Counted from the stretch's first letter, positions 13,379 to 38,544 are shown. The stretch is 64,000 bases of DNA from Candidatus Omnitrophota bacterium (GCA_021108075.1 JAIORP010000030.1:133-64132), one strand, 5' to 3'. Numbers and translations: made by a program. The notes: generated by a model not told the origin, from the sequence alone.

Positions 13379-14206
13379 ATGAATAAGAAACTTGCTTTTT
13401 GCAAAATGGTAGGGGCCGGGAATGATTTTATTATTCTTGATCATCCCGCTCGGATGAATTTCAAGAAGCTCGCTCCTGTTATGTGTGATCGAACCAACGG
13501 TATCGGCGCGGACGGATTGCTGGTGCTGTCGCCATCACGAAAGACAGATTTTCGAATGCGTATCATTAATGCGGATGGGTCTGAAGCTGAGATGTGTGGC
13601 AATGGCGCAAGATGCATGGCCGCTTATATCGTTCGATATAAAAAACCTAAACAGAAGTTGTTTGGGGTCGAAACCATCGCCGGGCTTATTATGAGTGAAG
13701 CGAAAGGACAAATCGCGAATGTCCATCTTAGTGACCCTCTGGGTTACAAGGAGAGCATCAAGCTTAAAATTAATAAGCGCGTAATGCATTTGAGCTATAT
13801 TGACACAGGTGTGCCGCATGTGATTGTCTTTGTGGACAGCCTGATGCAAATCCCTGTCAATGTTATTGGTGAGCAAATCCGCTACCATAAAAATTTTTCT
13901 CCTAGAGGAACGAATGTGAATTTTGTTGAGCAATTATTGGATGATTTAGTAGCTGTCCGGACATATGAGCGCGGGGTCGAAGGTGAAACAAAGGCCTGTG
14001 GGACTGGCAGCGTTGCGGCTGCGCTTGTCAATTATTTGAAAGGATATGCGGCAGGGCGGGATAAGAAGAAGGCGAAGATGAAAGTCCTGACACAAAGCGG
14101 TGAAACATTATTCGTAACTTTTGATGTTATTAATGGTCAACCCAAAAATGTTTGGTTGAAAGGCAGCGCTAAATTCATTGCTAAAGGCGAATATTTTATA
14201 AAATAA
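13379..14206 (+). CDS. dapF: Diaminopimelate epimerase
   Basis: It has both catalytic Cys motifs (MCGNGARC and ACGTGSVAA) and the N-terminus KMVGAGNDFIILD. Confidence 0.88.
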   Translation: MNKKLAFCKMVGAGNDFIILDHPARMNFKKLAPVMCDRTNGIGADGLLVLSPSRKTDFRMRIINADGSEAEMCGNGARCMAAYIVRYKKPKQKLFGVETIAGLIMSEAKGQIANVHLSDPLGYKESIKLKINKRVMHLSYIDTGVPHVIVFVDSLMQIPVNVIGEQIRYHKNFSPRGTNVNFVEQLLDDLVAVRTYERGVEGETKACGTGSVAAALVNYLKGYAAGRDKKKAKMKVLTQSGETLFVTFDVINGQPKNVWLKGSAKFIAKGEYFIK

Positions 14207-14242
14207 TGATTAATGAAAGCATCAAATAAAAAGGAGTCTGTT

Positions 14243-15133
14243 ATGTTTAGAGGATCTATTGTCGCGTTAGTTACTCCGTTCAAGGATGGAAAGATTGATG
14301 ACGCTAAAATAAAAGAGCTTGTTCAATTTCATCTTGATCATGGTACCAACGGCATTCTACCCTGTGGGACAACGGGGGAATCCCCGACATTATCTCATGA
14401 TGAACATAAACGCGTTGTTGAGCTTTGTATAGAGGTGGCAGGGGGCAAGGTGCCGATCTTGGCAGGCACTGGATCAAATTCTACTTCAGAGGCGGTCGCC
14501 TTGACAAAACACGCGGCCAGGGCCGGGGCTGATGCGGCTTTAGTTGTGACTCCTTATTACAACAAGCCGATGCAGGAAGGATTGTATCAGCATTTTAAGG
14601 CCATTGCTGATAATGTTGATATTCCGATCATTCTTTACAATATCGTCGGGCGTACGGCTCGCAACATCGAGACTGAGACTGTGGTTCGTTTGGCGAATGA
14701 TTGCAAAAATATCATTGGTGTTAAAGAAGCCTCAGGTTCATTAGATCAAATGCAGGCCGTTAAGCTCTATTGCCCTGAGGGGTTCATTTTGTTATCAGGC
14801 GATGACGCGTTAACCCTGCCATTATTAAGCATTGGGGGCCAGGGCGTGGTTTCTGTGGTTGCGAATATCATCCCCGACCAGACCGCGAAGTTGGTCAATC
14901 TTTTTGACGCAGGTAGGATTGAGGAAGCCAGGACATTGCATTTTAAGATGTTGCCATTGGTCAAAGCCATGTTTCTGGAAACCAATCCGATTCCTGTTAA
15001 GACGGCTATGGGACTGTTAGGTCTTTGTGATGACACGTTAAGATTACCATTAACGAGTATGAGTGATAGCGATAAGGTTAAATTGCAATCGGCCATCAAA
15101 GCTTATGGTTTGGTTGAGAAAACTTTAGTGTGA
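14243..15133 (+). CDS. dapA: 4-hydroxy-tetrahydrodipicolinate synthase
   Basis: It has the N-terminus GSIVALVTPF, and GTTGESPTLS. The start is set at MFRG with AAGGAG upstream. Confidence 0.85.
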   Translation: MFRGSIVALVTPFKDGKIDDAKIKELVQFHLDHGTNGILPCGTTGESPTLSHDEHKRVVELCIEVAGGKVPILAGTGSNSTSEAVALTKHAARAGADAALVVTPYYNKPMQEGLYQHFKAIADNVDIPIILYNIVGRTARNIETETVVRLANDCKNIIGVKEASGSLDQMQAVKLYCPEGFILLSGDDALTLPLLSIGGQGVVSVVANIIPDQTAKLVNLFDAGRIEEARTLHFKMLPLVKAMFLETNPIPVKTAMGLLGLCDDTLRLPLTSMSDSDKVKLQSAIKAYGLVEKTLV

Positions 15134-15229
15134 AAATGACGATTTTTTTGATCCCGCTCGATGCCTGTTCAGGGAAAAAAGACATGAGGCGGTAACGGGA
15201 TGTTTAAAAAATTAAAAAGGAATAAAAAA

Positions 15230-15952
15230 ATGATTAAGTTAGCTGTGACGGGTGCCCGGGGGAGAATGGGGCAAAGAATAACACTCTTGGCCTTAAAAGA
15301 TGATTGTTTCACGATTGAGGCATTATTGGAACGTCCGGATCATCCTGAAATCAATGCCAAGATGCAGGGGATCGGTCTTCAGACAGATATAGCTACGGCC
15401 ATTAAGGCTGCTGACGTTTTGATCGATTTTACATCGCCTGATTCGACCATGAAAAATATCGAGCATTGTTGCGCCGCTAACGTCAAGCTGGTTATCGGTA
15501 CGACCGGTCTTACAGCTGAACAGTCAAAGACGATTAATGCCGCCGGGGCGAAAATCCCTGTCGTTTTTTCATCCAATATGTCCGTCGGAGTTAATTTGTT
15601 GTTTAAGCTGACCCAGGTGGCCGCGATGACGACGAAGGATCAATATAAGATGTCCCTCACAGAAGCTCACCATGTGCATAAAAAGGATGCTCCTTCCGGA
15701 ACGGCAAAAACATTGGCCCGGTTGGCCGAAGCCGCGTCCCGATCTGCGGTTGAGAAGATTGATTCTCTTCGAGAAGGCGAGATCATCGGAGATCATAGCA
15801 TTGTTTTTGAGAGTCCGGAAGATATTATCACAATTTCGCATCATGCCAAGACGCGGGATATTTTTGCTAAGGGGGCTCTTGTCGCCGCGAAATTTTTAGA
15901 AGATAAAAGTTCAGGTATTTATACGATGCAAGATGTTTTGGGTCTCATTTAA
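15230..15952 (+). CDS. dapB: 4-hydroxy-tetrahydrodipicolinate reductase
   Basis: It has the N-terminal NAD-binding stretch MIKLAVTGARGRMGQ and the motif EAHHVHKKDAPSGTA. Confidence 0.85.
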   Translation: MIKLAVTGARGRMGQRITLLALKDDCFTIEALLERPDHPEINAKMQGIGLQTDIATAIKAADVLIDFTSPDSTMKNIEHCCAANVKLVIGTTGLTAEQSKTINAAGAKIPVVFSSNMSVGVNLLFKLTQVAAMTTKDQYKMSLTEAHHVHKKDAPSGTAKTLARLAEAASRSAVEKIDSLREGEIIGDHSIVFESPEDIITISHHAKTRDIFAKGALVAAKFLEDKSSGIYTMQDVLGLI

Positions 15953-16057
15953 ATAAATTTCAAGCCTGTGGTTGTCAATATGTGTTTGAAGTTTTAAAGC
16001 GATACATGCCTTGACGAACACGTATGATAATTTCAAATAGAATAGAAAGGAATGGGT

Positions 16058-17224
16058 ATGTCTTTTAATATTGAATTCTCCGATAGATTAAAAAAATTAC
16101 CGCCATATCTCTTTATTGAGATTGAAAAAGCTAAGCGCGAAGCGCTTGCCGATGGCCGTGATGTGATTAATTTAGGCGTGGGGGATCCTGATATTCCGAC
16201 GCCACAACACATTATAGATGCCATGAAAGAAGCTGTTCAGGACCCGAATAATCACCACTATGCGTTGGATGCCGGTTTGGCGGCGCTAAGATCGGAGATC
16301 GCGAACTGGTTTGGGCAACGTTTTTCCGTTTCCCTGAATCCGGAAACAGAAATTTATCCGGTCCTGGGATCCAAAGAAGGGTTAGCGCATTTGCCCTTAG
16401 GTATCATTAATCCGAAAGATAAGATCCTTCTGACAGATCCTGCTTATCCTGCCTACCGTCCGACGATCACGTTTGCCGGAGGCCGAATCATGAATGTTCC
16501 TATGAAAGCGGGCAACGCCTTTTTGCCGAATATTTCAAAAATAGCCGAGTATAAGGATATCAAAATGCTGGTCATCAATTATCCTAATAATCCGACGGCG
16601 GCAACGGCGACCAAAGAATTTTATCAAGACCTTGTTGATCTGGCCAAAGAGAAGGGTTTTATTATTTGTTCGGATATGGCGTATTCAGAGGTGTATTTTG
16701 ACGGAGAAAAGCCGCCGAGTATTTTAGAAATTGACGGTGCCAGAGAGGTCGCGATAGAATTTCATTCTTTTTCAAAAACATATGCCATGACGGGCTGGCG
16801 AATCGGCTGGGCGTGTGGTAACGAAACTTTAGTTGCGGCTTTAGCTAAAGTTAAGTCAAATTATGACTCTGGAATTTTTCAGGCTGTCCAATGCGCGGGG
16901 ATCGCCGCCCTTAAAACAGATCCGGTCATATTGGATGATATGCGCGGTTTGTTCCAGGATCGCCGTGATTATCTGATTAATGGTCTCAGATCCATCGGGT
17001 GGAAGATTCCTTCGCCTAAAGCGGCTTTTTACGTTTGGGCTAAGATCCCGAAGGGCTTTAAGGATTCAATGGAAACAGCCCGAATTTTTTTAGATAAGGC
17101 TGATATCGTCATAACTCCGGGAGTCGGGTTTGGCCCTGAGGGTGAAGGCTATATCCGTATGGCCTTGACTGTTCCCGTTGACCGTATCAATGAAGCTGTT
17201 GGCCGTATAGCTAAGATATTGTAA
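16058..17224 (+). CDS. dapL: LL-diaminopimelate aminotransferase (DapL-type class I aminotransferase)
   Basis: It has the N-terminus RLKKLPPYLFIEIEKAK...VINLGVGDPDIPTP characteristic of DapL. Its genomic context is lysA-dapF-dapA-dapB, with no dapD, dapC or dapE. An alternative start at 16052 is possible. Confidence 0.6.
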   Translation: MSFNIEFSDRLKKLPPYLFIEIEKAKREALADGRDVINLGVGDPDIPTPQHIIDAMKEAVQDPNNHHYALDAGLAALRSEIANWFGQRFSVSLNPETEIYPVLGSKEGLAHLPLGIINPKDKILLTDPAYPAYRPTITFAGGRIMNVPMKAGNAFLPNISKIAEYKDIKMLVINYPNNPTAATATKEFYQDLVDLAKEKGFIICSDMAYSEVYFDGEKPPSILEIDGAREVAIEFHSFSKTYAMTGWRIGWACGNETLVAALAKVKSNYDSGIFQAVQCAGIAALKTDPVILDDMRGLFQDRRDYLINGLRSIGWKIPSPKAAFYVWAKIPKGFKDSMETARIFLDKADIVITPGVGFGPEGEGYIRMALTVPVDRINEAVGRIAKIL

Positions 17225-17227
17225 CTT

Positions 17228-17331
17228 ATACCAATTCCATTAAATAATTTTCAAAACCGATTCTGTTTTTTTCGACGTTTAAGCAAGAATATCAGAATTG
17301 AAATAGAACAATTAATGAATGGGTTTGGTAT
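17228..17331. repeat. Palindromic intergenic repeat element, copy A (about 100 bp, with an imperfect 21-nt terminal inverted repeat)
   Basis: ATACCAATTCCATTAAATAAT ... ATAGAACAATTAATGAATGGGTTTGGTAT, with an inner hairpin GATTCTG/CAGAAT. A second copy lies at 25857-25939. Confidence 0.7.
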
Positions 17332-17354
17332 TAGTTGATTTTGAGGAGTACATT

Positions 17355-17777
17355 TTGGCAATCGTATTTATTGCTTTTGGATCCAACTCAGGTAATCGAC
17401 GAAATTATATCTCTCAAGCATTAAATAGCATGGAGGAACTTGGGATTGAGCTCCTTCAGGTTTCCTCTTTTCATGAAACAGAACCTGTCGGTGGCCCCTC
17501 TGGTCAGATGAAATATCTTAACGGCGTTGCCAAAGTGAAGACATCATTAACGCCTGTTCTATTTTTGGACCGACTGCAGCAGATTGAAAAGAATTTAGGC
17601 CGTGAACGGAGTGTTCCTGACGCTCCGCGAACTATCGATCTGGATATCCTGTTATATGATGACTTGAAAGTGCAGACAGATCGTCTAACCATCCCCCATC
17701 CTCGCATGTGGCAACGCACGTTTGTCCTGAACCCTCTGGAAGAAATAGCCCCTGAAATTGTAGAAGGAGGTCCTTGA
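17355..17777 (+). CDS. folK: 2-amino-4-hydroxy-6-hydroxymethyldihydropteridine pyrophosphokinase (HPPK)
   Basis: It has the HPPK core ...IAFGSNSGNR...ETEPVGGP...RTIDLDILLY...PHPRMWQRTFVL. The ORF-track ATG at 17319 lies inside the repeat element. A likely TTG start at 17355 has GAGGAG 7 nt upstream. Confidence 0.75.
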   Translation: MAIVFIAFGSNSGNRRNYISQALNSMEELGIELLQVSSFHETEPVGGPSGQMKYLNGVAKVKTSLTPVLFLDRLQQIEKNLGRERSVPDAPRTIDLDILLYDDLKVQTDRLTIPHPRMWQRTFVLNPLEEIAPEIVEGGP

Positions 17778-18640
17778 TGCTGATCATAAAAAATATTAAA
17801 TCGATTAATAGCAAAATAAATAGTTTGAAACGTTCCGGAAGGTCAATTGGTTTTGTGCCGACGATGGGGGCATTGCACGAAGGTCATTTATCTATCATGC
17901 GAAGAGCTCGTCGACAAAACGACATTGTTGTTGTGAGCGTTTTTGTAAATCCGAAACAGTTCGGCCTGAATGAGGATTTTGCCCGATATCCCCGTCAAGA
18001 AAAAAAAGATCATTTGTTGGCAAAAAAAGAAAAAGTTGATATAATATTTTATCCGTCGATAGAAGAAATCTATCCGACCAGATATTTGACATACATTAAC
18101 GTTGAAGGTATCAGCCGCATTCTTTGTGGTCATGACCGCCCCGTCCATTTTAAAGGGGTAACGACAATCGTCGGAAAGTTGTTGAATCTTGTCCGTCCGG
18201 ATAATCTTTACCTCGGACAAAAAGATGCTCAACAAGTGATCGTATTAAGAAAAATGATTGTTGATTTGAACTTTCCGGTCAAAGTTCGTGTTTGTCCGAT
18301 TGTCCGTGAACCGGATGGTTTGGCCCTGAGTTCGCGCAATAAATATTTAACAAATCAACAACGTCTTGAATCACCGGTTTTGTTTCAGGCTTTAAAAAAA
18401 GCGAAAATCAAAGCCTTGAAAGAAAACGTTTCTGTTAAAGGTGTCCTCAACCTAATGAAATCAAATATAACAAAAAATAGTTCTGGTTCTATTGATTATA
18501 TTGCATGTGTTGATGCTGATTCATTAGTCCCGCTCGACGTCATTAAAGGTCGGGTGATGATCGCATTAGCCGTGAAGTTTGGTAAAACCAGGCTGATTGA
18601 TAATATCGTTTTTAGAAAAGACGATGGCAAAAAAAAATAA
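17774..18640 (+). CDS. panC: Pantoate--beta-alanine ligase
   Basis: It has the motifs GFVPTMGALHEGHLSIM and ...GKTRL. Confidence 0.85.
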   Translation: MMLIIKNIKSINSKINSLKRSGRSIGFVPTMGALHEGHLSIMRRARRQNDIVVVSVFVNPKQFGLNEDFARYPRQEKKDHLLAKKEKVDIIFYPSIEEIYPTRYLTYINVEGISRILCGHDRPVHFKGVTTIVGKLLNLVRPDNLYLGQKDAQQVIVLRKMIVDLNFPVKVRVCPIVREPDGLALSSRNKYLTNQQRLESPVLFQALKKAKIKALKENVSVKGVLNLMKSNITKNSSGSIDYIACVDADSLVPLDVIKGRVMIALAVKFGKTRLIDNIVFRKDDGKKK

Positions 18641-19448
18641 TTGGAAAATTGGTGTTCTTGGGTGCGGCGCTGTTGGTTCTCGTCTGGCAAATTTTGTCAC
18701 AACGGGACTTAAGAGTCCATGCCGTTTAACGGCCCTTTATGACGTCGATGTGGACCGTGCGAAATCCCTGGCTAAGAAATTAGCGATTCCTCATGCTGTC
18801 TGCCCTTCATTTTCTGCTTTCTTAAAGAAATCGAATTTTATTATTGAAGCCGTCAATGCTAACAATGCGCGTGCTCTCATTGAGAAGATATTAATAGCTA
18901 AAAAACATTTGCTCGTCATGAGTGTCGGGCAAATGCTTCATTCAAAAAAAATATTTGATATTGTAGAACAAAATCAACTGTCTTTATTAGTTCCTTCCGG
19001 TGCTATCGCCGGGGTTGACGCGCTAAAATCAGCGAGTCATAAGCAGATCGAACGGATCACCTTAACAACACGGAAACCACCAAAAGGATTGGCGGGTAAT
19101 CCCTACTTTGAGCAAAAAGGAATTGATTTAACAAAAATAAAGAAGGAGACAGTTGTTTTTGACGGCAATGTCAAACAGGCGGTTAAAAATTTCCCGAGGA
19201 ATATAAACGTTGCGGCAACAATCGCGTTGGCTTCACGGAAGCCAGCCAGGATGAGAGTCCGTATTATTACCTCGCCAGAGTTCAAAACAAATTCTCATGA
19301 GCTTGAAGTTGTTGGAGATTTCGGTCGTTTTGTAACACGGACGGAAAATGTCGCTTGTCCGGATAATCCCAAAACAAGCTATTTAGCGGTTTTGTCCGGA
19401 ATGCAAACATTAAAACAGTTTTTTGAAAATAGCTATTTAGGAACGTAA
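18627..19448 (+). CDS. L-aspartate dehydrogenase-like (NadX family) NAD(P)-binding protein
   Basis: It has the N-terminal Rossmann motif KIGVLGCGAVG and an aspartate-DH-type C-terminal domain. Its start overlaps the panC end. Confidence 0.5.
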   Translation, partial: AKKNNWKIGVLGCGAVGSRLANFVTTGLKSPCRLTALYDVDVDRAKSLAKKLAIPHAVCPSFSAFLKKSNFIIEAVNANNARALIEKILIAKKHLLVMSVGQMLHSKKIFDIVEQNQLSLLVPSGAIAGVDALKSASHKQIERITLTTRKPPKGLAGNPYFEQKGIDLTKIKKETVVFDGNVKQAVKNFPRNINVAATIALASRKPARMRVRIITSPEFKTNSHELEVVGDFGRFVTRTENVACPDNPKTSYLAVLSGMQTLKQFFENSYLGT

Positions 19449-19641
19449 ATGGATCTGTGGATAAAGACGGTTTCGATGATCCCTTGATGTAATAACCGTG
19501 TGAGTATGCTCGATTGATTGAGTGTATCTTGAATTCTGTCGGGGCCTTAGAGTTTGCTTCGCCTGCTTGTACTCTGGGACGACGTTCAGATTTTGATCAC
19601 ATCTACTGATTTAAATAAGTGAATAGAAAGGAGGTGAATTC

Positions 19642-20058
19642 ATGGCTAAAAAGGTTGCCAAAGTCGGTGTAAAGAAAGAAGCTGGTTTCTTGTACTTCGT
19701 TGACAAGGATGGTGATATTTCTTGTGCAAAGATGGCGCGCGGCAATAAAAAAGGGGGAAAACCTAAAAAAGCAGCTAAGGTTGGAATCACTAAGGAGTCA
19801 GGTTTACTGTACTTTATAGACAAAGATGGTGATATCTCCTGCGCAAAAATGGTTCGTGGCGGTAAGAAAAAGAAAAAAGCTGCTAAGAAAAAAACAGCCA
19901 AAAAGACAGTTGTTAAGAAAAAAGTTGCCAAGAAAAAAGTAGTCAAGAAAAAAGCAGCCAAGAAGAAAGTCGTTAAGAAAAAGGTTGTAAAAAAGAAAGC
20001 AGCAAAGAAAAAAGTCGTTAAGAAAAAACCAGCTAAGAAAAAAGCTAAAAAGAAATAG
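19642..20058 (+). CDS. Lysine-rich histone H1-like protein with a tandemly duplicated roughly 30-aa N-terminal module
   Basis: The module KVGVKKEAGFLYFVDKDGDISCAKMARG occurs twice. It is followed by a (V/A)KKK(V/A)(V/A)KK tail encoded by tandem 24-nt repeats. A strong AAGGAGG site and a downstream terminator are present. Confidence 0.6.
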   Translation: MAKKVAKVGVKKEAGFLYFVDKDGDISCAKMARGNKKGGKPKKAAKVGITKESGLLYFIDKDGDISCAKMVRGGKKKKKAAKKKTAKKTVVKKKVAKKKVVKKKAAKKKVVKKKVVKKKAAKKKVVKKKPAKKKAKKK

Positions 20059-20082
20059 TAGTATAACGACTGCTAGAAAAGA

Positions 20083-20121
20083 ATGGTCCTTATCCTTAAT
20101 TTGAATGAGGGCCATTTTTTT
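20083..20121 (+). terminator. Rho-independent terminator after the lysine-rich gene
   Basis: The stem AATGGTCCT...AGGGCCATT is followed by T7. Confidence 0.5.
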
Positions 20122-20327
20122 ATGCCGGAGGACTGCCTGCGGTTTTTCCCCAGTGACGGATATATTGTTTATTCCGACCTGTTTGTTGATATGTTGCACG
20201 GAATATGATTTGACTTTTGAGGTGAGAGCGATTATTCTGTAGTCACCTTTTTAAGAATATTACCCTCTACGATGATGACAGTTAACCGTAAGATATCAGA
20301 CTGTTTCACGACTAATTTAACAATATC

Positions 20328-23129
20328 ATGAAAAAAGAATATATTATTATCCGGAAAGCGAGAGAACATAATTTGAAGGAGATCAATCTTAAGATCCCGC
20401 GCAATCAATTCGTCGTTATTACGGGATTGAGCGGATCGGGAAAATCTTCATTAGCTTTTGATACGATCTATGCAGAAGGCCAACGCCGATATGTCGAGAG
20501 TTTGTCCGCGTATGCCCGTCAATTTTTGGAACAGCTTAAAAAGCCCGATGTTGAACATATTGAAGGTTTATCGCCAACCATATCCATCGAACAAAAAACC
20601 ACCAGCCGAAATCCCCGCTCGACAGTGGCCACACAGACGGAGATCAATGACTATCTTCGTCTTTTTTTTGCAAGAGTGGGAACGCCGTATTGTTCAAAAT
20701 GTGGCAAAAAGATTGAACGACAGACGATTGAAGAGATTATCCAGTCAATTATCCTGAACATGACCGATTCCAAGATCATTATTCTGGCACCATTCATTCG
20801 AGGGCGTAAGGGAGAATATCGTCAAATTGGACAAAAGGTTGCCAGGGCAGGTTTTTCCCGTTTACGGATTGACGGACAGATTTTTCATGTCGAAGATGAC
20901 ATCTTATTGGATCGTTATAAAGTGCATAATATCGAAGTCGTTGTTGACCGGTTGACACTCAAGGAGAAAATTTTGGGCCGTTTGACAGATTCCCTTGAGA
21001 CTGCGCTTGAGTTGGGCAAAGGGATTGTTATTATTTCCGACGTGAATGACTCTAATCACGAAACAATGTATAGTGAGAATTATGCCTGCATTGATTGCGG
21101 TCTGAATATCCCTGAAATTGAACCAAGAAATTTTTCTTTCAATTCTCCGTATGGGGCGTGCGTAGAGTGCAATGGTTTGGGAACAAAAATGGAAATTGAC
21201 CCGGATTTACTTGTGCCTGATGACAAGAAGGTCTGGATCAATGCTATCGCACCAGCACGGAGAGGACGACGCGCATTTTTAATGTATTTTCGTGCTGTTA
21301 TGCGTGAGTTCGCGAAACTGTATGATTTTGATCTGACGATCCCTTTTAACAAGCTCGGTAAATCTTTTCGGCAAAAAATGTTTTATGGCTCTGATACAGA
21401 TATGATCTGGGGTAAGTGCTATGAGGGTGTTATTCCGTATTTGGAGCGTTTATTTAGGGAAACCGATAATGATTGGCTCAAGGATGAGATATCTAACTAC
21501 ATGTCCGAGTTGCCTTGTCCGAACTGTAAAGGGACCCGATTGAAGTCCGAGTCTTTATCCGTGAAAGTTGATGGACGTAATATTGCCGAAGTTAATAGGT
21601 TTTCTATCAAACAGGCGAGGTTGTTTTTTGAAAAATTGCGTTTAAACCCATCCATGCGGATAATCAGTGAGCCTATCGTCAAAGAAATTATCCGTCGGTT
21701 GGATTTTTGTATCGATGTGGGTCTTGAATACTTAACGTTAGACCGTAAGAGCTCAACCTTATCCGGTGGTGAAGCGGAGAGGATAAGGCTGGCAACCCAG
21801 ATCGGATCCGGATTAGTGGGGGTTGTGTATATCCTGGATGAGCCGAGTATCGGCTTGCACCCCAAGGACAATGAGCGGTTGTTGCGGACGTTACACGCCC
21901 TGCGGGATTTGGGGAACACGTTGATTGTCGTTGAGCATGACGAGGAAACAATCCGGCAGTCGGATTACATTATTGATTTGGGGCCAGGCGCAGGTGAACA
22001 TGGCGGGGAGGTTCTTCATGCGGGATCTGTGGCGAGTTTGTTGCGGTCGAGAAAGTCTTTAACGGGGCAGTATTTGCGGGGCAAATTAATGATTCCGGTT
22101 CCCCGGCAAAGACGCTCCCAGACAGATAAATGTATTATAATTTATGGCGCGGCTGAGAATAATTTAAAAAAAATTACCGTTAAAATCCCTTTGCAGAACT
22201 TTGTTTGTGTCACGGGGGTCTCAGGTTCTGGTAAATCGACGCTGGTGGATGAAATTCTTTATAAGGCTTTGGCCCAAAAGATTTATAAGTCTAAGTTAAG
22301 ACCCGGAGTGCATAGAAAGATAGACGGGATTGAGCATATCGATAAGATCATTGAGGTTGACCAATCTCCGATAGGGCGAACGCCACGTTCAAATCCAGCG
22401 ACGTATACAGGTGTTTTTAGTCATATCCGCGATGTCTTCAGCCGTCTTCCCGAATCAAAAATGCGTGGATTTAAACCCGGCCGATTTAGTTTTAATGTGA
22501 AAGGTGGTCGTTGCGAGGTCTGTCGCGGTGATGGTATCCGTAAGATCGAAATGCATTTTCTTCCTGATGTGTATGTTGAATGTGAGGTCTGTAAAGGTCA
22601 ACGCTTTACAGGTCAGACCTTAGAGATAACTTATAAAGGCTATAATATCGCGCAGATATTGAGTATCTCCGTTCTTGAGGCCTTGCATGTTTTTGACAAT
22701 ATTCCCCGTATCAAGCGGGTATTAACAACATTGAATGATGTCGGCCTTGGTTATATCAGACTGGGGCAGCCAGCGACCACACTTTCCGGCGGGGAGGCGC
22801 AACGAGTGAAGCTTGCTGGCGAATTATGTAAACCTTCAACAGGGCGAACATTGTATGTCCTTGATGAACCGACCACCGGTTTGCATTTTGCTGATGTGCA
22901 TAAATTATTAAATGTCTTGCAATGTCTCGTGGATAAAGATAATACAGTATTGGTCATCGAGCATAACTTGGAAGTCATTAAGAATGCGGACTATGTTATC
23001 GATCTTGGCCCTGAGGGGGGGGATCTTGGTGGTGAAATTGTTTATGCGGGTACCCCTGAGGATCTTATGAAACAAAAAAAGTCGTACACGGGGCAATATT
23101 TAAAATCCTTCCTGTGTAAATTTTCTTAA
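20328..23129 (+). CDS. uvrA: Excinuclease ABC subunit A
   Basis: It has two ABC ATPase modules (GLSGSGKSSL and GVSGSGKSTL), LSGGE signatures, zinc-finger Cys clusters and a length of 933 aa. Confidence 0.95.
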   Translation: MKKEYIIIRKAREHNLKEINLKIPRNQFVVITGLSGSGKSSLAFDTIYAEGQRRYVESLSAYARQFLEQLKKPDVEHIEGLSPTISIEQKTTSRNPRSTVATQTEINDYLRLFFARVGTPYCSKCGKKIERQTIEEIIQSIILNMTDSKIIILAPFIRGRKGEYRQIGQKVARAGFSRLRIDGQIFHVEDDILLDRYKVHNIEVVVDRLTLKEKILGRLTDSLETALELGKGIVIISDVNDSNHETMYSENYACIDCGLNIPEIEPRNFSFNSPYGACVECNGLGTKMEIDPDLLVPDDKKVWINAIAPARRGRRAFLMYFRAVMREFAKLYDFDLTIPFNKLGKSFRQKMFYGSDTDMIWGKCYEGVIPYLERLFRETDNDWLKDEISNYMSELPCPNCKGTRLKSESLSVKVDGRNIAEVNRFSIKQARLFFEKLRLNPSMRIISEPIVKEIIRRLDFCIDVGLEYLTLDRKSSTLSGGEAERIRLATQIGSGLVGVVYILDEPSIGLHPKDNERLLRTLHALRDLGNTLIVVEHDEETIRQSDYIIDLGPGAGEHGGEVLHAGSVASLLRSRKSLTGQYLRGKLMIPVPRQRRSQTDKCIIIYGAAENNLKKITVKIPLQNFVCVTGVSGSGKSTLVDEILYKALAQKIYKSKLRPGVHRKIDGIEHIDKIIEVDQSPIGRTPRSNPATYTGVFSHIRDVFSRLPESKMRGFKPGRFSFNVKGGRCEVCRGDGIRKIEMHFLPDVYVECEVCKGQRFTGQTLEITYKGYNIAQILSISVLEALHVFDNIPRIKRVLTTLNDVGLGYIRLGQPATTLSGGEAQRVKLAGELCKPSTGRTLYVLDEPTTGLHFADVHKLLNVLQCLVDKDNTVLVIEHNLEVIKNADYVIDLGPEGGDLGGEIVYAGTPEDLMKQKKSYTGQYLKSFLCKFS

Positions 23130-23323
23130 TGCGATTCTGTCTATACGCGTGAATTCTTTTTTTGTCATATGTGAAAAAATTTATATTTTAATTGGAGTTT
23201 ATCAAATTTTTACTAAAATTATATACAACATCCAAGACAACATTTGTATAAGGTTAATATGGAGCGGTTAAATCGTGATGAGCCCATATTGAAAAAAAGG
23301 TCAGAACTGATATAATATCTCGC

Positions 23324-25840
23324 ATGAAATTAAAAATATTAATATTACTTTTTAGTGTTCTCTCATTCACTTCCATATTCCAACCTGACATGCTTTTTTC
23401 TACCGCTTGGGCTAAGAATCAGGAGAAGGAATTGTTCCTGGTTGCTCAAAAAGCATTTGAAGATGGTTTTTATGATGTCGCGATTAGATACATTGAACAA
23501 TTGATACAGGAATATCCACAGACGGAACACCTGGTGCAGTCGAAATTATTGTTAGGTCAATGTTATTTCTTCCAGAGCCAATATTTAAAGGCCTATGATA
23601 TTTTTAACAGCTTGCTTAAATATGCCGAATTTAAGGATGCGACATTATTTTGGTTGGGAGAAACTTTTTTAAAAGGCATGGATTATGGCCAGGCAGAAAA
23701 GAATTACCGGCAGTTGATCGCATTATTTCCCGAGTCATCCTATGCGCCGCAGGCGTATTATTCTTTGGGGTGGACATATTTTGAACAGGAAAAATATGCG
23801 GATTCCCAACAATCGTTTGCCGAATTCGTTGATAAATACCCGCGCCATCAGTTAGCAGAAGATGCCGCTTTTAAGGTCGGTGAGTCTTATTTTCATTTGC
23901 GGGAATATAATGACGCGATTAATGCCTTTAAGAATTATTTGCAGTATTATCAACAAACAGGCCGCCATGCTGAAGCCTATTTTTATTTGGCCGAATCTTT
24001 TTATTACCAGGATGAATATCAGCAAGCTGTTGATTATTACCGTTTGTCTGTGGATAAGGCATTAGATAAGAGGTTGATTATGATGAACAGTTTAAGCTTG
24101 GGATGGGGTTATTTAAAATTGATGAATTATGAGGACTCGGAACGCAGTTTTAGAGCGGCTTTAGAACTGTCTTATGAGAAAAAAATTCCTTCGGATGATA
24201 TTTATTTAGGGTTAGCGGGGTTATATGTTGAGCAAAAGAGGTTTAATGAAGCTTTAACAGCATATGATAAATTGATTCAGGAATATCCCCAAAGTTCAAG
24301 AATGATTGACGCTTTACTGGGCAAAGCCAATATCCATTATTTGCTTGAAGAATACGATCAAGCGATAACGACATATAAAACTGTCATTGAAAATTTTATT
24401 GCATTAAATTCAGACGGAAACACCTTGTCCGACCAAATGTATGATGACCTTTTGGAAAAAACATATTTTGGGCTTGCTTGGGCTTATTTGAAAAAGGGAG
24501 ATCTGAATCAATCGATCATAGCTTTTGAGACGATTAAAGACAAAGCCAAAAGTAAGGTTGTTAAGATTAGTGCCTTAACGCAGATTGGTGATGCTTTTCA
24601 AGATGTTGACCAGCTTGAGCGGGCCGTTGGTATTTACGATCAGATCCTAAAGGACTATACGGATAGTCCCTATGCGGACTACGTTCAATATCGTCAAGGA
24701 ATTGCTTTGTTGAAAATGGGTGAGATTGAAGCTGCAACGCTTTCTTTTCAAAGCCTGCAATTGAACTTTCCACAAAGCAGCTATCTCAATGATGTTGAGT
24801 ACTATCTTGCAGTAGCCTATTTTAAAAAAGGTGATTGGTTGACAGCAAAAGACCATATCGAGAAATTTTTAACAGACAAATCTTATAATTATGAGTTCGG
24901 AGCCGAGGCTTATTATATTTTGGCGCTGACCAATTTTAATATCCCGGACTATCAGGCGGCCTTAAAGACATTCCAGAAAATTGTTAGGGGTTATCCTCAA
25001 GAAAGAATGATTATTCGGACGTCTGAACTTAGTATTGCCAAGTGTTATTATAAATTGGGCAAGGTTAATGAAGCGTTAAAGAAATTTAAAATACTTATTT
25101 TTAAATATCCTGAAACAGAAATATCCCAGGAAGCTTTGATTTGGTTGGGGGATCATTATTTGGAAGCAGGCGATTATAATAATGCGGTTGCTTATTATAA
25201 ACAATTTATTGAGATTTTTCCCGGCAGCCCTAAAATTAGCATCATTTATTATGAGCTCGGTCAAGCTTATATCGCGTCAGAAGCCTATGACAAGGCTGTT
25301 AATGTGCTGAAGAAAGTTAGTGACCCAAAAGACGGGGATGTTTATGTCAAAGCCAAGTTAGCCATCGCCGATATTTTTGCCCGGGACTTTGAATCTGAAT
25401 CTGCCATTGAAACTTATGAAAATATTATCTATCATTCTCCAGAATTTAAGCGTGACGCCTATGTGAAAATGGCGGGTGTGTATAAAAAGATTTCCGACTA
25501 TGATAATACGCTGGTCGCGTATCAAAAAGCTTTAGAATCTAAAAGGGGGTTGAGTGCCATCAAGAACGTGCAGTTACAGTTTTTTATTGCTGAAACGTAT
25601 GAAATTTTGAATCAAAGAGACCTGGCGGTCAAAGAATATTTTAGAATTCCGTATTTATATGAAAAAAAAGTCGAATGGGTTGTGCGGTCCTACTTAAGGA
25701 TCGCGAAATTATTTGAGCACCAGGAGAGGTGGGATGATGTTAAGCTGATTTATCAGAAAATTATTGAGTTAAAGACAGATGAATCGGTTTTTGCTGAAGA
25801 ACGTATTGAATGGCTTCGTGAGCATAATCACATCAAATGA
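23324..25840 (+). CDS. Large secreted tetratricopeptide-repeat (TPR) protein (838 aa)
   Basis: It has an N-terminal signal peptide (LILLFSVLSFTSIF...AWA). More than 15 TPR-like units (YY.LG..Y, AI..Y..L...YP) run throughout. It heads the ExbBD and pilus gene block. Confidence 0.7.
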   Translation: MKLKILILLFSVLSFTSIFQPDMLFSTAWAKNQEKELFLVAQKAFEDGFYDVAIRYIEQLIQEYPQTEHLVQSKLLLGQCYFFQSQYLKAYDIFNSLLKYAEFKDATLFWLGETFLKGMDYGQAEKNYRQLIALFPESSYAPQAYYSLGWTYFEQEKYADSQQSFAEFVDKYPRHQLAEDAAFKVGESYFHLREYNDAINAFKNYLQYYQQTGRHAEAYFYLAESFYYQDEYQQAVDYYRLSVDKALDKRLIMMNSLSLGWGYLKLMNYEDSERSFRAALELSYEKKIPSDDIYLGLAGLYVEQKRFNEALTAYDKLIQEYPQSSRMIDALLGKANIHYLLEEYDQAITTYKTVIENFIALNSDGNTLSDQMYDDLLEKTYFGLAWAYLKKGDLNQSIIAFETIKDKAKSKVVKISALTQIGDAFQDVDQLERAVGIYDQILKDYTDSPYADYVQYRQGIALLKMGEIEAATLSFQSLQLNFPQSSYLNDVEYYLAVAYFKKGDWLTAKDHIEKFLTDKSYNYEFGAEAYYILALTNFNIPDYQAALKTFQKIVRGYPQERMIIRTSELSIAKCYYKLGKVNEALKKFKILIFKYPETEISQEALIWLGDHYLEAGDYNNAVAYYKQFIEIFPGSPKISIIYYELGQAYIASEAYDKAVNVLKKVSDPKDGDVYVKAKLAIADIFARDFESESAIETYENIIYHSPEFKRDAYVKMAGVYKKISDYDNTLVAYQKALESKRGLSAIKNVQLQFFIAETYEILNQRDLAVKEYFRIPYLYEKKVEWVVRSYLRIAKLFEHQERWDDVKLIYQKIIELKTDESVFAEERIEWLREHNHIK

Positions 25841-38471: not shown

Positions 38472-38544
38472 GGGTCGGTAGCTCAATTGGGAGAGCACAT
38501 GGTTCGCAATCATGAGGTTGGGGGTTCGATCCCCCTCCGATCCA
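38472..38544 (+). tRNA. tRNA-Ala (anticodon CGC)
   Basis: It folds into a cloverleaf by hand. The acceptor stem GGGTCGG/CCGATCC has the G3:U70 Ala identity pair. The D-loop is AATTGGGA and the anticodon loop is TTCGCAA. The T-loop is TTCGATC and the discriminator is A73. CCA is not encoded. A TTGTCA-17-TAATAT promoter lies upstream. Confidence 0.8.

Follow-up and report, generated by a model that had tools for sequence, protein, structure and literature searches.

A candidate nucleoid-associated protein of Omnitrophota with a duplicated beta-module and a lysine-repeat tail

We analyzed a stretch of 64,000 nucleotides (nt) from a Candidatus Omnitrophota bacterium (GCA_021108075.1, JAIORP010000030.1:133-64132), called the window below, and in it one gene, at positions 19642-20058, for a small and very basic protein of 138 amino acids (aa). 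The first 74 residues consist of two copies of a module that is predicted to be all-beta, and the remainder is a tail of lysine-rich pentapeptides. From its charge, its translation signals and the nucleases to which some of its relatives are fused, the protein appears to be an abundant cytoplasmic nucleic-acid-binding protein, probably a nucleoid-associated one, a reading to which we give a probability of roughly one half. An original prediction, made from the sequence of the window, had proposed the same 138-aa open reading frame (ORF), which we confirm with its ATG start, and had called the product a candidate nucleoid-associated protein, which stays the most plausible reading. The elements of the gene are:

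19642-20058 (+): coding sequence, 138 aa, 15.1 kDa, pI 10.6; ATG start, stop codon included
19648-19743 (+): module 1, residues 3-34, KKVAKVGVKKEAGFLYFVDKDGDISCAKMARG, three predicted beta-strands
19744-19764 (+): basic Gly/Lys linker, residues 35-41, NKKGGKP; K37 is invariant and K36, G38 and K40 are nearly so
19765-19860 (+): module 2, residues 42-73, KKAAKVGITKESGLLYFIDKDGDISCAKMVRG, three predicted beta-strands
19864-20055 (+): lysine-repeat tail, residues 75-138 (64 aa), made of KKKKK, pentapeptides [A/V/T/P][A/V]KKK and a terminal AKKK

A conserved double beta-module

The protein has lysine at 56 of its 138 positions (41%) and a net charge of +50, and the core (residues 1-74) on its own has a net charge of +10 and a pI of 9.8. 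Its two modules are identical at 25 of 32 amino acids, with a period of 39 aa, and at 70% of positions as DNA. The original prediction had described a duplicated unit of about 30 aa; the duplication holds, since for the 30-aa version 23 of 30 residues are identical and none of 200,000 composition-preserving shuffles reaches 23 (maximum 12), but the true span is 32 aa. Each module is one three-stranded unit with the motif G-[YF]-L-Y-F-[VI]-D-K-x-G-[DN]-[VI].

In an alignment of 42 homologues, 17 positions are invariant, and many Lys/Arg positions nearly so. Specifically, G15, L17, Y18, K22, G24 and M31 are invariant in module 1, and G54, L56, Y57, F58, D60, K61, G63 and M70 in module 2, which is followed by GG and the basic tail. 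The conserved basic positions are K4, K7, K11, K22, R33, K36, K37, K40, K46, K50, K51, K61, K76 and K77. The window protein has all the family-invariant positions, and a basic C-terminal stretch after the modules is present in every family member. Between species, identity is 0.76 for module 1 against module 1 and 0.74 for module 2 against module 2, compared with 0.70 for module 1 against module 2 within a protein and 0.69 between proteins. Orthologous modules are thus slightly more alike than paralogous ones, and the duplication is therefore old, with both halves under almost equal constraint.

An AlphaFold2 model of the core, built on the same 42-sequence alignment, is all-beta with six strands and no helix (mean pLDDT, the model's per-residue confidence, 89; pTM, its global score, 0.71). 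The strands of module 1 lie at residues 3-6, 16-20 and 26-30 (pLDDT > 90) and those of module 2 at 42-45, 55-59 and 65-69; the block of residues 31-40, in the linker region, has a pLDDT of 91. The six-strand core is retained in the full-length model. For the core model, Foldseek returned no similar fold from BFVD or from the PDB, where the best E was 0.84 and TM did not exceed 0.35.

Sequence libraries gave the same answer. Pfam, NCBIfam, PHROGs and PADLOC, searched with the whole protein and with residues 1-74, returned sub-threshold or low-complexity matches only: DUF7053, Psb28, choline-binding regions of PspA/PspC, and the K-rich tails of Rpf, a sigma factor and TopA. Nothing significant was found in the PDB with the single sequence (best an EF-hand kinase, E 1.3), with a two-module profile (best a choline-binding protein, E 1.3 over 21 residues) or with a single-module profile of 74 diverse modules, for which non-significant matches to YWTD hairpins of LRP6 appeared at E > 3. 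A match of the N-terminal module to a well-characterized non-DNA-binding family was among the things sought, and none was found.

The family is nevertheless large. Residues 1-74 have 1,664 homologues in a collection of 5.8 billion clusters, with E-values down to 1e-45; not one carries a Pfam domain, and every one is unnamed or 'hypothetical'. Homologues are 64-92% identical to the window protein. A profile search of 1.84 billion representatives gave 1,162 clusters at 50% identity (424 with E <= 1e-10), and relatives are encoded by at least 579 stretches of the GTDB species genomes. The labels of these relatives include Omnitrophota, Elusimicrobiota/Endomicrobiia, Babeliaceae (Dependentiae), Myxococcota and Woesearchaeota/Nanoarchaeota, and bacterial and archaeal members share about 65-75% core identity. 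This distribution across the two domains is probably real, because the archaeal copies sit among archaeal-type genes (PolX, OapB/OapC, HerA and a Mre11-like phosphoesterase) and several lie on 90-200-kb contigs from Woesearchaeota bins. On predicted viral contigs the family hardly occurs, with seven diverged copies (L166-L172) in 2.9 million contigs; the one in L166 (3983-4234, on a 103-kb IMG/VR contig) is an 83-aa two-module protein without a long tail.

Searching the literature on Omnitrophota nucleoids, nucleoid-associated proteins of DPANN and the module motif, we found no paper on the family; a survey of prokaryotic histones covers other, histone-fold proteins in these phyla (PMC11390915). 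As far as these sequence, structure and literature searches reach, then, the two-module core is a large family for which we located no curated model, solved relative or paper, which agrees with the earlier statement that the duplicated module was not recognized.

The lysine-repeat tail

The tail comprises 64 residues instead of the roughly 70 proposed at first, and is organized as 12 pentapeptides xxKKK plus AKKK, with 40 lysines (62%) and a single proline. Tandem Repeats Finder assigns periods of 15, 45 and 60 nt to the tail DNA, whose self-identity is 0.68-0.73 at offsets of 15, 30, 45 and 60 nt. At an offset of 24 nt it is 0.25, which is the background level: the octapeptide (V/A)KKK(V/A)(V/A)KK with a 24-nt period, as first described, is a mis-registration of the 15-nt unit xxKKK. 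The DNA copies had also been called near-identical. They are about 70% identical, with alanine and valine codons that differ synonymously between repeats; the longest exact repeat is 17 nt (at 19966 and 20011) and the longest run of A is 7. Most KKK triplets are encoded AAG-AAA-AAA, so that runs of A stay at 7 or fewer in spite of the 62% lysine, a codon choice by which slippery poly(A) tracts and long exact repeats may be avoided. In the full-length AlphaFold2 model residues 75-127 form one helix (pLDDT 67-89), which carries little weight with an alignment depth of zero over the tail.

A long tail is the exception in the family. Most members are 75-90 aa long with a tail of about 5-10 aa. At 80 species-level loci the tail after the final GG has a median length of 5.5 aa, and reaches at least 30 aa at eight loci and at least 63 aa at four; in 158 complete homologues from genomes and metagenomes it reaches at least 30 aa in 20 and at least 60 aa in seven. 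Overall the median is 5.5-9 aa, and the tails on this core span 0-75 aa. Judged by this contrast, the conserved functional unit is the double module and the long tail is a lineage-specific addition. Long tails are seen in Omnitrophota, Endomicrobia, Woesearchaeota, Myxococcota-like and further lineages, and their units vary (xVKKK, AVKK, TKKTA, ATKKK and AAKRK, with AKKAP in high-GC organisms). That tails of Lys, Ala, Val, Thr and Pro recur with different units is an argument that the binding of polyanions in general has been under selection.

Relatives with at least 85% core identity to the window protein have tails of 5-75 aa, so tail length is labile between species; the closest relative, from a metagenome (L110, 92% core identity), has a tail of 71 aa. 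To this extent the earlier claim that the tail expands and contracts stands. Its other part, easy slippage, is weak given how degenerate the copies are, which argues against a very rapid process. A conspecific contig was sought for variation between strains and none was found, the exact protein being absent from a collection of 15 billion proteins.

One Woesearchaeota-labelled homologue (L008, 4001-4417) has the same xVKKK unit and the same total length, 138 aa, as the window protein. A recent transfer of the long-tailed form between the domains was considered and rejected, because synonymous differences occur along the whole gene and the flanking sequences bear no relation to each other. On these comparisons the likeness of the two tails is due to convergence or to an old transfer.

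Comparison with known basic proteins

The original prediction had called the protein H1-like. This holds for the composition of the tail, which is like that of H1 and Hc2, and fails as a family assignment: there is no match to Linker_histone, Hc1 or HU/IHF, and the core is predicted to be all-beta. As far as sequence goes, the likeness to H1 and Hc2 is one of tail composition, and the pentamer organization is closest to Hc2.

Hc2 is a DNA-condensing protein built of consecutive lysine-rich pentamers with evenly spaced charge and with A, V, T or P elsewhere, and its length varies with the number of repeats (PMC2848022). The tail in the window shares with Hc2 (hctB, and the Hc2-like proteins of Bordetella and Burkholderia) the consecutive lysine-rich pentamers and the even spacing of charge. 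However, the Hc2 pentamer has two basic and three neutral residues (A/V/T/P), whereas that of the window has three lysines and two A/V residues and thus a denser charge. Hc2 also has a higher-order element of 36 aa and varies between strains, whereas the periods in the window DNA are 45 and 60 nt, not 108 nt, and the copies are degenerate. Finally, Hc2 lacks the double beta-module; we detected no homology, and the name Hc2 does not occur among the 1,664 homologues. Membership of the Hc2 family, which also has conserved flanking regions, is rejected on these grounds.

Other lysine-repeat tails reported to bind DNA are those of AlgP with its KPAA repeats (PMC9239181), TopA (PMC5714199) and Ku with its PAKKA repeats (PMC3553676), and such H1-like tails raise DNA affinity or processivity, or condense DNA (PMC9239181, PMC5714199, PMC3553676). 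H1, AlgP/PhaF (KPAA), actinobacterial HupB/HupS, TopA and Ku (PAKKA) all have, like the window protein, a low-complexity C-terminal tail rich in Lys and Ala on a folded domain. The tail in the window differs from the H1-like tails in being rich in valine, in having one proline in 64 residues, and in being modelled by AlphaFold2 as a helix rather than disordered, a difference of low weight. In H1/H5 the comparison ends with the tail, as the core of the window protein is predicted to have six beta-strands and no winged-helix GH1/GH5 domain, and no Linker_histone match appears at E-values up to 10. Homology to H1 or Hc1 is therefore rejected: neither Pfam nor NCBIfam gives a Linker_histone or Hc1 match, and the N-terminus is an unrelated double beta-module in place of the conserved dimerization domain that precedes the Lys-rich C-terminus of Hc1. 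Membership of the HU/IHF family is rejected as well, with no Bac_DNA_binding match in Pfam.

The small archaeal chromatin proteins Sul7d/Sso7d and Cren7 are very basic, abundant proteins of about 7 kDa in which a small antiparallel beta-sheet contacts DNA through lysines and exposed hydrophobic or methionine residues. The core of the window protein resembles them in its size, its charge and its predicted all-beta structure, and methionine and aromatic residues are among its invariant positions. The difference is in architecture, since Sul7d and Cren7 are single five-stranded SH3-like barrels and the core in the window is two duplicated three-stranded units. We reject membership of this family too: there is no Foldseek match in the PDB, which holds these structures, and no sequence similarity.

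The modules share a local hairpin, G-aromatic-x-Y-[FY]-x-D-x-x-G, with CW_binding_1, the blades of YWTD/PQQ propellers and a Cache hairpin, but these matches are sub-threshold (E 1.3 to 7) or extend over one hairpin only. Choline-binding repeats are about 20 aa long and occur on secreted proteins, whereas the window protein has a period of 39 aa, no predicted signal peptide and a highly basic composition. With no Pfam match, a PDB profile match of E 1.3 over 21 residues and no predicted signal peptide, membership of CW_binding_1 is rejected.

Fusions and module arrays

Most family members are free-standing soluble proteins, but the modules also occur in 2-8 copies and beside unrelated domains. 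Two fusions involve nucleases: in P0230 the modules are joined to an Mrr_cat restriction endonuclease (E 8e-32) that also matches the PADLOC models for ZorD and the mREase_IV nuclease, and in P0192 to a nuclease-like region that matches PDC-S18, a candidate system in PADLOC (E 2e-12). In other proteins the modules accompany a HIT/DcpS-like nucleotide hydrolase (P0220), OmpA behind a transmembrane (TM) segment (P0123), DoxX (P0185), or zinc ribbons, GAF and a prokaryotic RING (P0168), and many further fusions are TM proteins that are otherwise unannotated.

P0121 (886 aa) and P0122 (354 aa) have 4-8 tandem modules, so the module would also work as a repeat array; those of P0121 come after a TM segment and a large domain predicted to be extracytoplasmic. 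Judging from TM positions and positive-inside charge, the modules of the membrane fusions P0121, P0123 and P0185 would lie on the cytoplasmic side. In five further proteins (P0166, P0200, P0235, P0265 and P0269) a Lys-rich linker joins two modules to a conserved C-terminal domain, which is about 90 aa long and ends in VPKKY; searches of Pfam and the PDB found no relative of this domain.

Translation and transcription signals

The surroundings of the gene are:

18597-19448 (+): aspartate dehydrogenase-like gene (aspDH), upstream neighbour; assigned by conserved synteny and by Asp_DH_C/NAD_binding_3 Pfam domains on orthologues
19449-19626 (+): upstream intergenic spacer; its sequence is not kept in orthologues
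19627-19637 (+): Shine-Dalgarno sequence AAAGGAGGTGA; GGAGG ends 7 nt ahead of the ATG
20077-20121 (+): intrinsic-terminator-like hairpin; G+C core TGGTCCT/AGGGCCA, A-tract on the 5' arm, U7 at 20115-20121
20328-23129 (+): uvrA, downstream neighbour; assigned by synteny within Omnitrophota and by UvrA Pfam domains on orthologues

The Shine-Dalgarno (SD) sequence had been noted as very strong, and it is: its duplex with the anti-SD has an energy of -16.2 kcal/mol, the strongest among the 57 ORFs of the window. Pairing energies were computed against the canonical anti-SD, which is assumed to be that of the host. A strong SD is a trait of the whole family, with a median of -15.0 kcal/mol; in 72 of 80 loci the energy is -10 kcal/mol or stronger. 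The gene is probably highly translated. No signal peptide is predicted, because the N-terminus lacks a hydrophobic segment. We infer a cytoplasmic and abundant protein whose ligand would be a nucleic acid.

The terminator claimed to follow the gene was found, as a hairpin with U7 and a folding free energy of -26.9 kcal/mol (z = -6.46; none of 200 shuffles folds equally well). A simple terminator scan missed it because its loop is longer than 8 nt. The hairpin separates the gene from uvrA in the window. Two sigma-70-like matches lie between the terminator and uvrA (20210-20238 and 20317-20345, both +), a count that is not above that in shuffled sequence. They are consistent with a uvrA that is transcribed apart from the basic-protein gene.

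A transcription unit of its own is not supported for the gene, since close orthologues follow aspDH by about 20-40 nt, compared with a gap of 193 nt in the window that is not conserved. No sigma-70-like site was found upstream of the gene on the + strand, and a scan with Rfam gave no match near it. A conserved 5' leader, riboswitch or promoter was thus considered and rejected, on the blank Rfam result near the gene, the unconserved spacer and the missing upstream site. The only Rfam match in the window at the gathering threshold is a single tRNA gene (38472-38544, +).

Two antisense ORFs overlap the gene (19611-19961 and 19804-20199, both -, of 116 and 131 aa) and are rich in Phe and Leu. They mirror the AAG/AAA lysine-codon repeats and almost certainly are no genes.

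Gene neighbourhood

Members of the aspDH cluster are found immediately upstream in 48 loci and of the uvrA cluster downstream in 41, and in about 49 Omnitrophota-type loci the gene lies between the two, as it does in the window. The wider block is dapA-dapB-aminotransferase-folK-panC-aspDH-gene-uvrA-TPR, found at 13379-25840 in the window, in L001 and L005 and in about 40 other loci. Because the window has exactly this block, it would belong to an Omnitrophota-like genome, and its gene is the positional orthologue of the 83-84-aa proteins of Omnitrophota. The aspDH neighbour is not functionally linked to it. Several metagenome-assembled genomes labelled Planctomycetales, Halanaerobiales or Deltaproteobacteria (e.g., L016, L039 and L011) have this block as well, and their taxonomic labels are probably wrong.

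Outside Omnitrophota the surroundings are different. HerA or Mre11-like genes lie at most three genes away in about eight archaeal loci, and the neighbours in Elusimicrobia are an EpmB-like radical-SAM lysine aminomutase and TsaB. In five Woesearchaeota loci (L004, L008, L027, L082 and L083), ORFs of about 195 and 230 aa adjoin the gene upstream on the same strand (about 1.3 kb); they have no Pfam match and may be its archaeal operon partner. A partner gene conserved across phyla was sought among the neighbourhoods, and none was found.

What the protein may do

DNA would be the most likely ligand, which we put at even odds. It is favoured because of the nuclease fusions, the repair-gene neighbours in two domains of life, and the published behaviour of lysine-repeat tails. 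In a mechanism of this kind the two near-identical modules would present two equivalent basic beta-sheet surfaces that bear the conserved Lys/Arg as well as exposed aromatic and Met residues, and these surfaces would bind nucleic acid, likeliest chromosomal DNA, without sequence specificity, as the small archaeal beta-sheet chromatin proteins do. The 64-aa [A/V][A/V]KKK tail, with its charge of +40, would add affinity and charge neutralization, and probably DNA bridging or condensation; its mode of action is modelled on the reported lysine-repeat tails of H1, Hc2, AlgP, actinobacterial TopA and Ku. Tail length would then be a lineage-specific parameter that evolution can adjust. We more tentatively suggest a further step, in which the family would be a new structural class of major chromatin (nucleoid-coating) protein that the ultrasmall or host-dependent bacteria Omnitrophota, Elusimicrobiota and Dependentiae share with DPANN archaea, probably through horizontal transfer, and in which the tail would be a rapidly evolving 'dial' of compaction.

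Several observations weigh against a nucleoid-associated protein. The core has no sequence or fold likeness to any known DNA-binding domain in Pfam, NCBIfam, the PDB or Foldseek comparisons. The fusion partners are heterogeneous and mostly not DNA-related (OmpA with a TM segment, DoxX, HIT, GAF/RING and many TM proteins). Neighbourhoods change between phyla, with translation-related ones in Elusimicrobia (EpmB-like, TsaB), and the adjacency of uvrA and of HerA may be plain lineage synteny. Finally, lysine-rich tails also bind RNA and polyphosphate, and AlgP is found at polyphosphate granules (PMC9239181).

An RNA- or ribosome-associated protein, such as an RNA chaperone or an accessory factor of the ribosome or of translation whose modules and tail bind rRNA or mRNA, seems to us rather unlikely, but less so than the explanations below. 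Small size, strong basicity and a strong SD fit it too, as do the EpmB-like gene and TsaB in Elusimicrobia, an MMR_HSR1-type GTPase near several archaeal loci, and the fusion to a HIT/DcpS-like nucleotide hydrolase in P0220. However, neither Pfam nor NCBIfam yields a match to a ribosomal-protein or RNA-binding family, and in none of the 165 loci examined is the gene in a ribosomal-protein operon. A tail that ranges from 0 to 75 aa would also fit a fixed ribosomal site poorly, and the fusions to Mrr_cat and the PDC-S18-like nuclease point to DNA instead.

Less probable still is that the protein binds some other cellular polyanion or a surface, for example polyphosphate granules or the acidic phospholipids of membranes, with the protein an organizer of granules or membranes and the modules a generic cytoplasmic docking domain. 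This would explain why so many fusions are membrane proteins with cytoplasmic modules (TM plus OmpA, DoxX, multi-TM), and the H1-like tail of AlgP does associate with polyphosphate granules (PMC9239181). The hairpin is also weakly like ligand-binding repeats (choline-binding, E 1.3; a sub-region of sCache_2), but these resemblances are non-significant or confined to one hairpin. Moreover, the explanation leaves the nuclease fusions aside, most members are free-standing and soluble, and no genes of polyphosphate metabolism are conserved nearby.

We rank next, and also consider improbable, that the double module serves in regulation or in contacts between proteins (as an adaptor or anti-factor) and that the tail is incidental low complexity. 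Such a function would suit a promiscuous module, present in 2-8 copies with partners as diverse as GAF/RING/zinc ribbon, HIT, OmpA and nucleases, and detectably related to no nucleic-acid-binding fold. It is harder to reconcile with the very strong conservation of the positive positions and the basic C-terminal stretch that is always there. The 65-75% identity between bacteria and archaea argues for a universal ligand and not for a lineage-specific partner, and no partner gene is conserved across phyla.

Although the tail DNA is A-rich and also yields long spurious antisense ORFs, a spurious ORF from low-complexity DNA is practically ruled out by an N-terminal 74 aa kept with synonymous divergence in more than 1,000 clusters and two domains of life, a position kept in Omnitrophota, and an optimal start context and terminator; on these grounds the gene is real.

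Significance

Proteins of this general kind, small and basic with a lysine-repeat tail, are already known; what is undescribed is the core family with its fold. The window protein is plausibly a candidate for a new kind of DNA-coating protein, in this copy with an unusually long lysine-repeat tail. Without a Pfam or NCBIfam model the family is currently invisible to annotation pipelines. It spans at least 579 species-level genomes and more than 1,000 clusters in both prokaryotic domains, has a predicted fold of its own, and belongs to lineages with a little-studied cell biology (Omnitrophota, Elusimicrobiota and DPANN). With 65-75% identity between its bacterial and archaeal members, it can serve as a marker for genes that ultrasmall organisms have exchanged between the domains, and its tails of 0-75 aa on one core are a natural series for relating tail length to the binding and condensation of polyanions. 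If the double module does bind DNA, a new and widespread family would join the short list of prokaryotic chromatin proteins.

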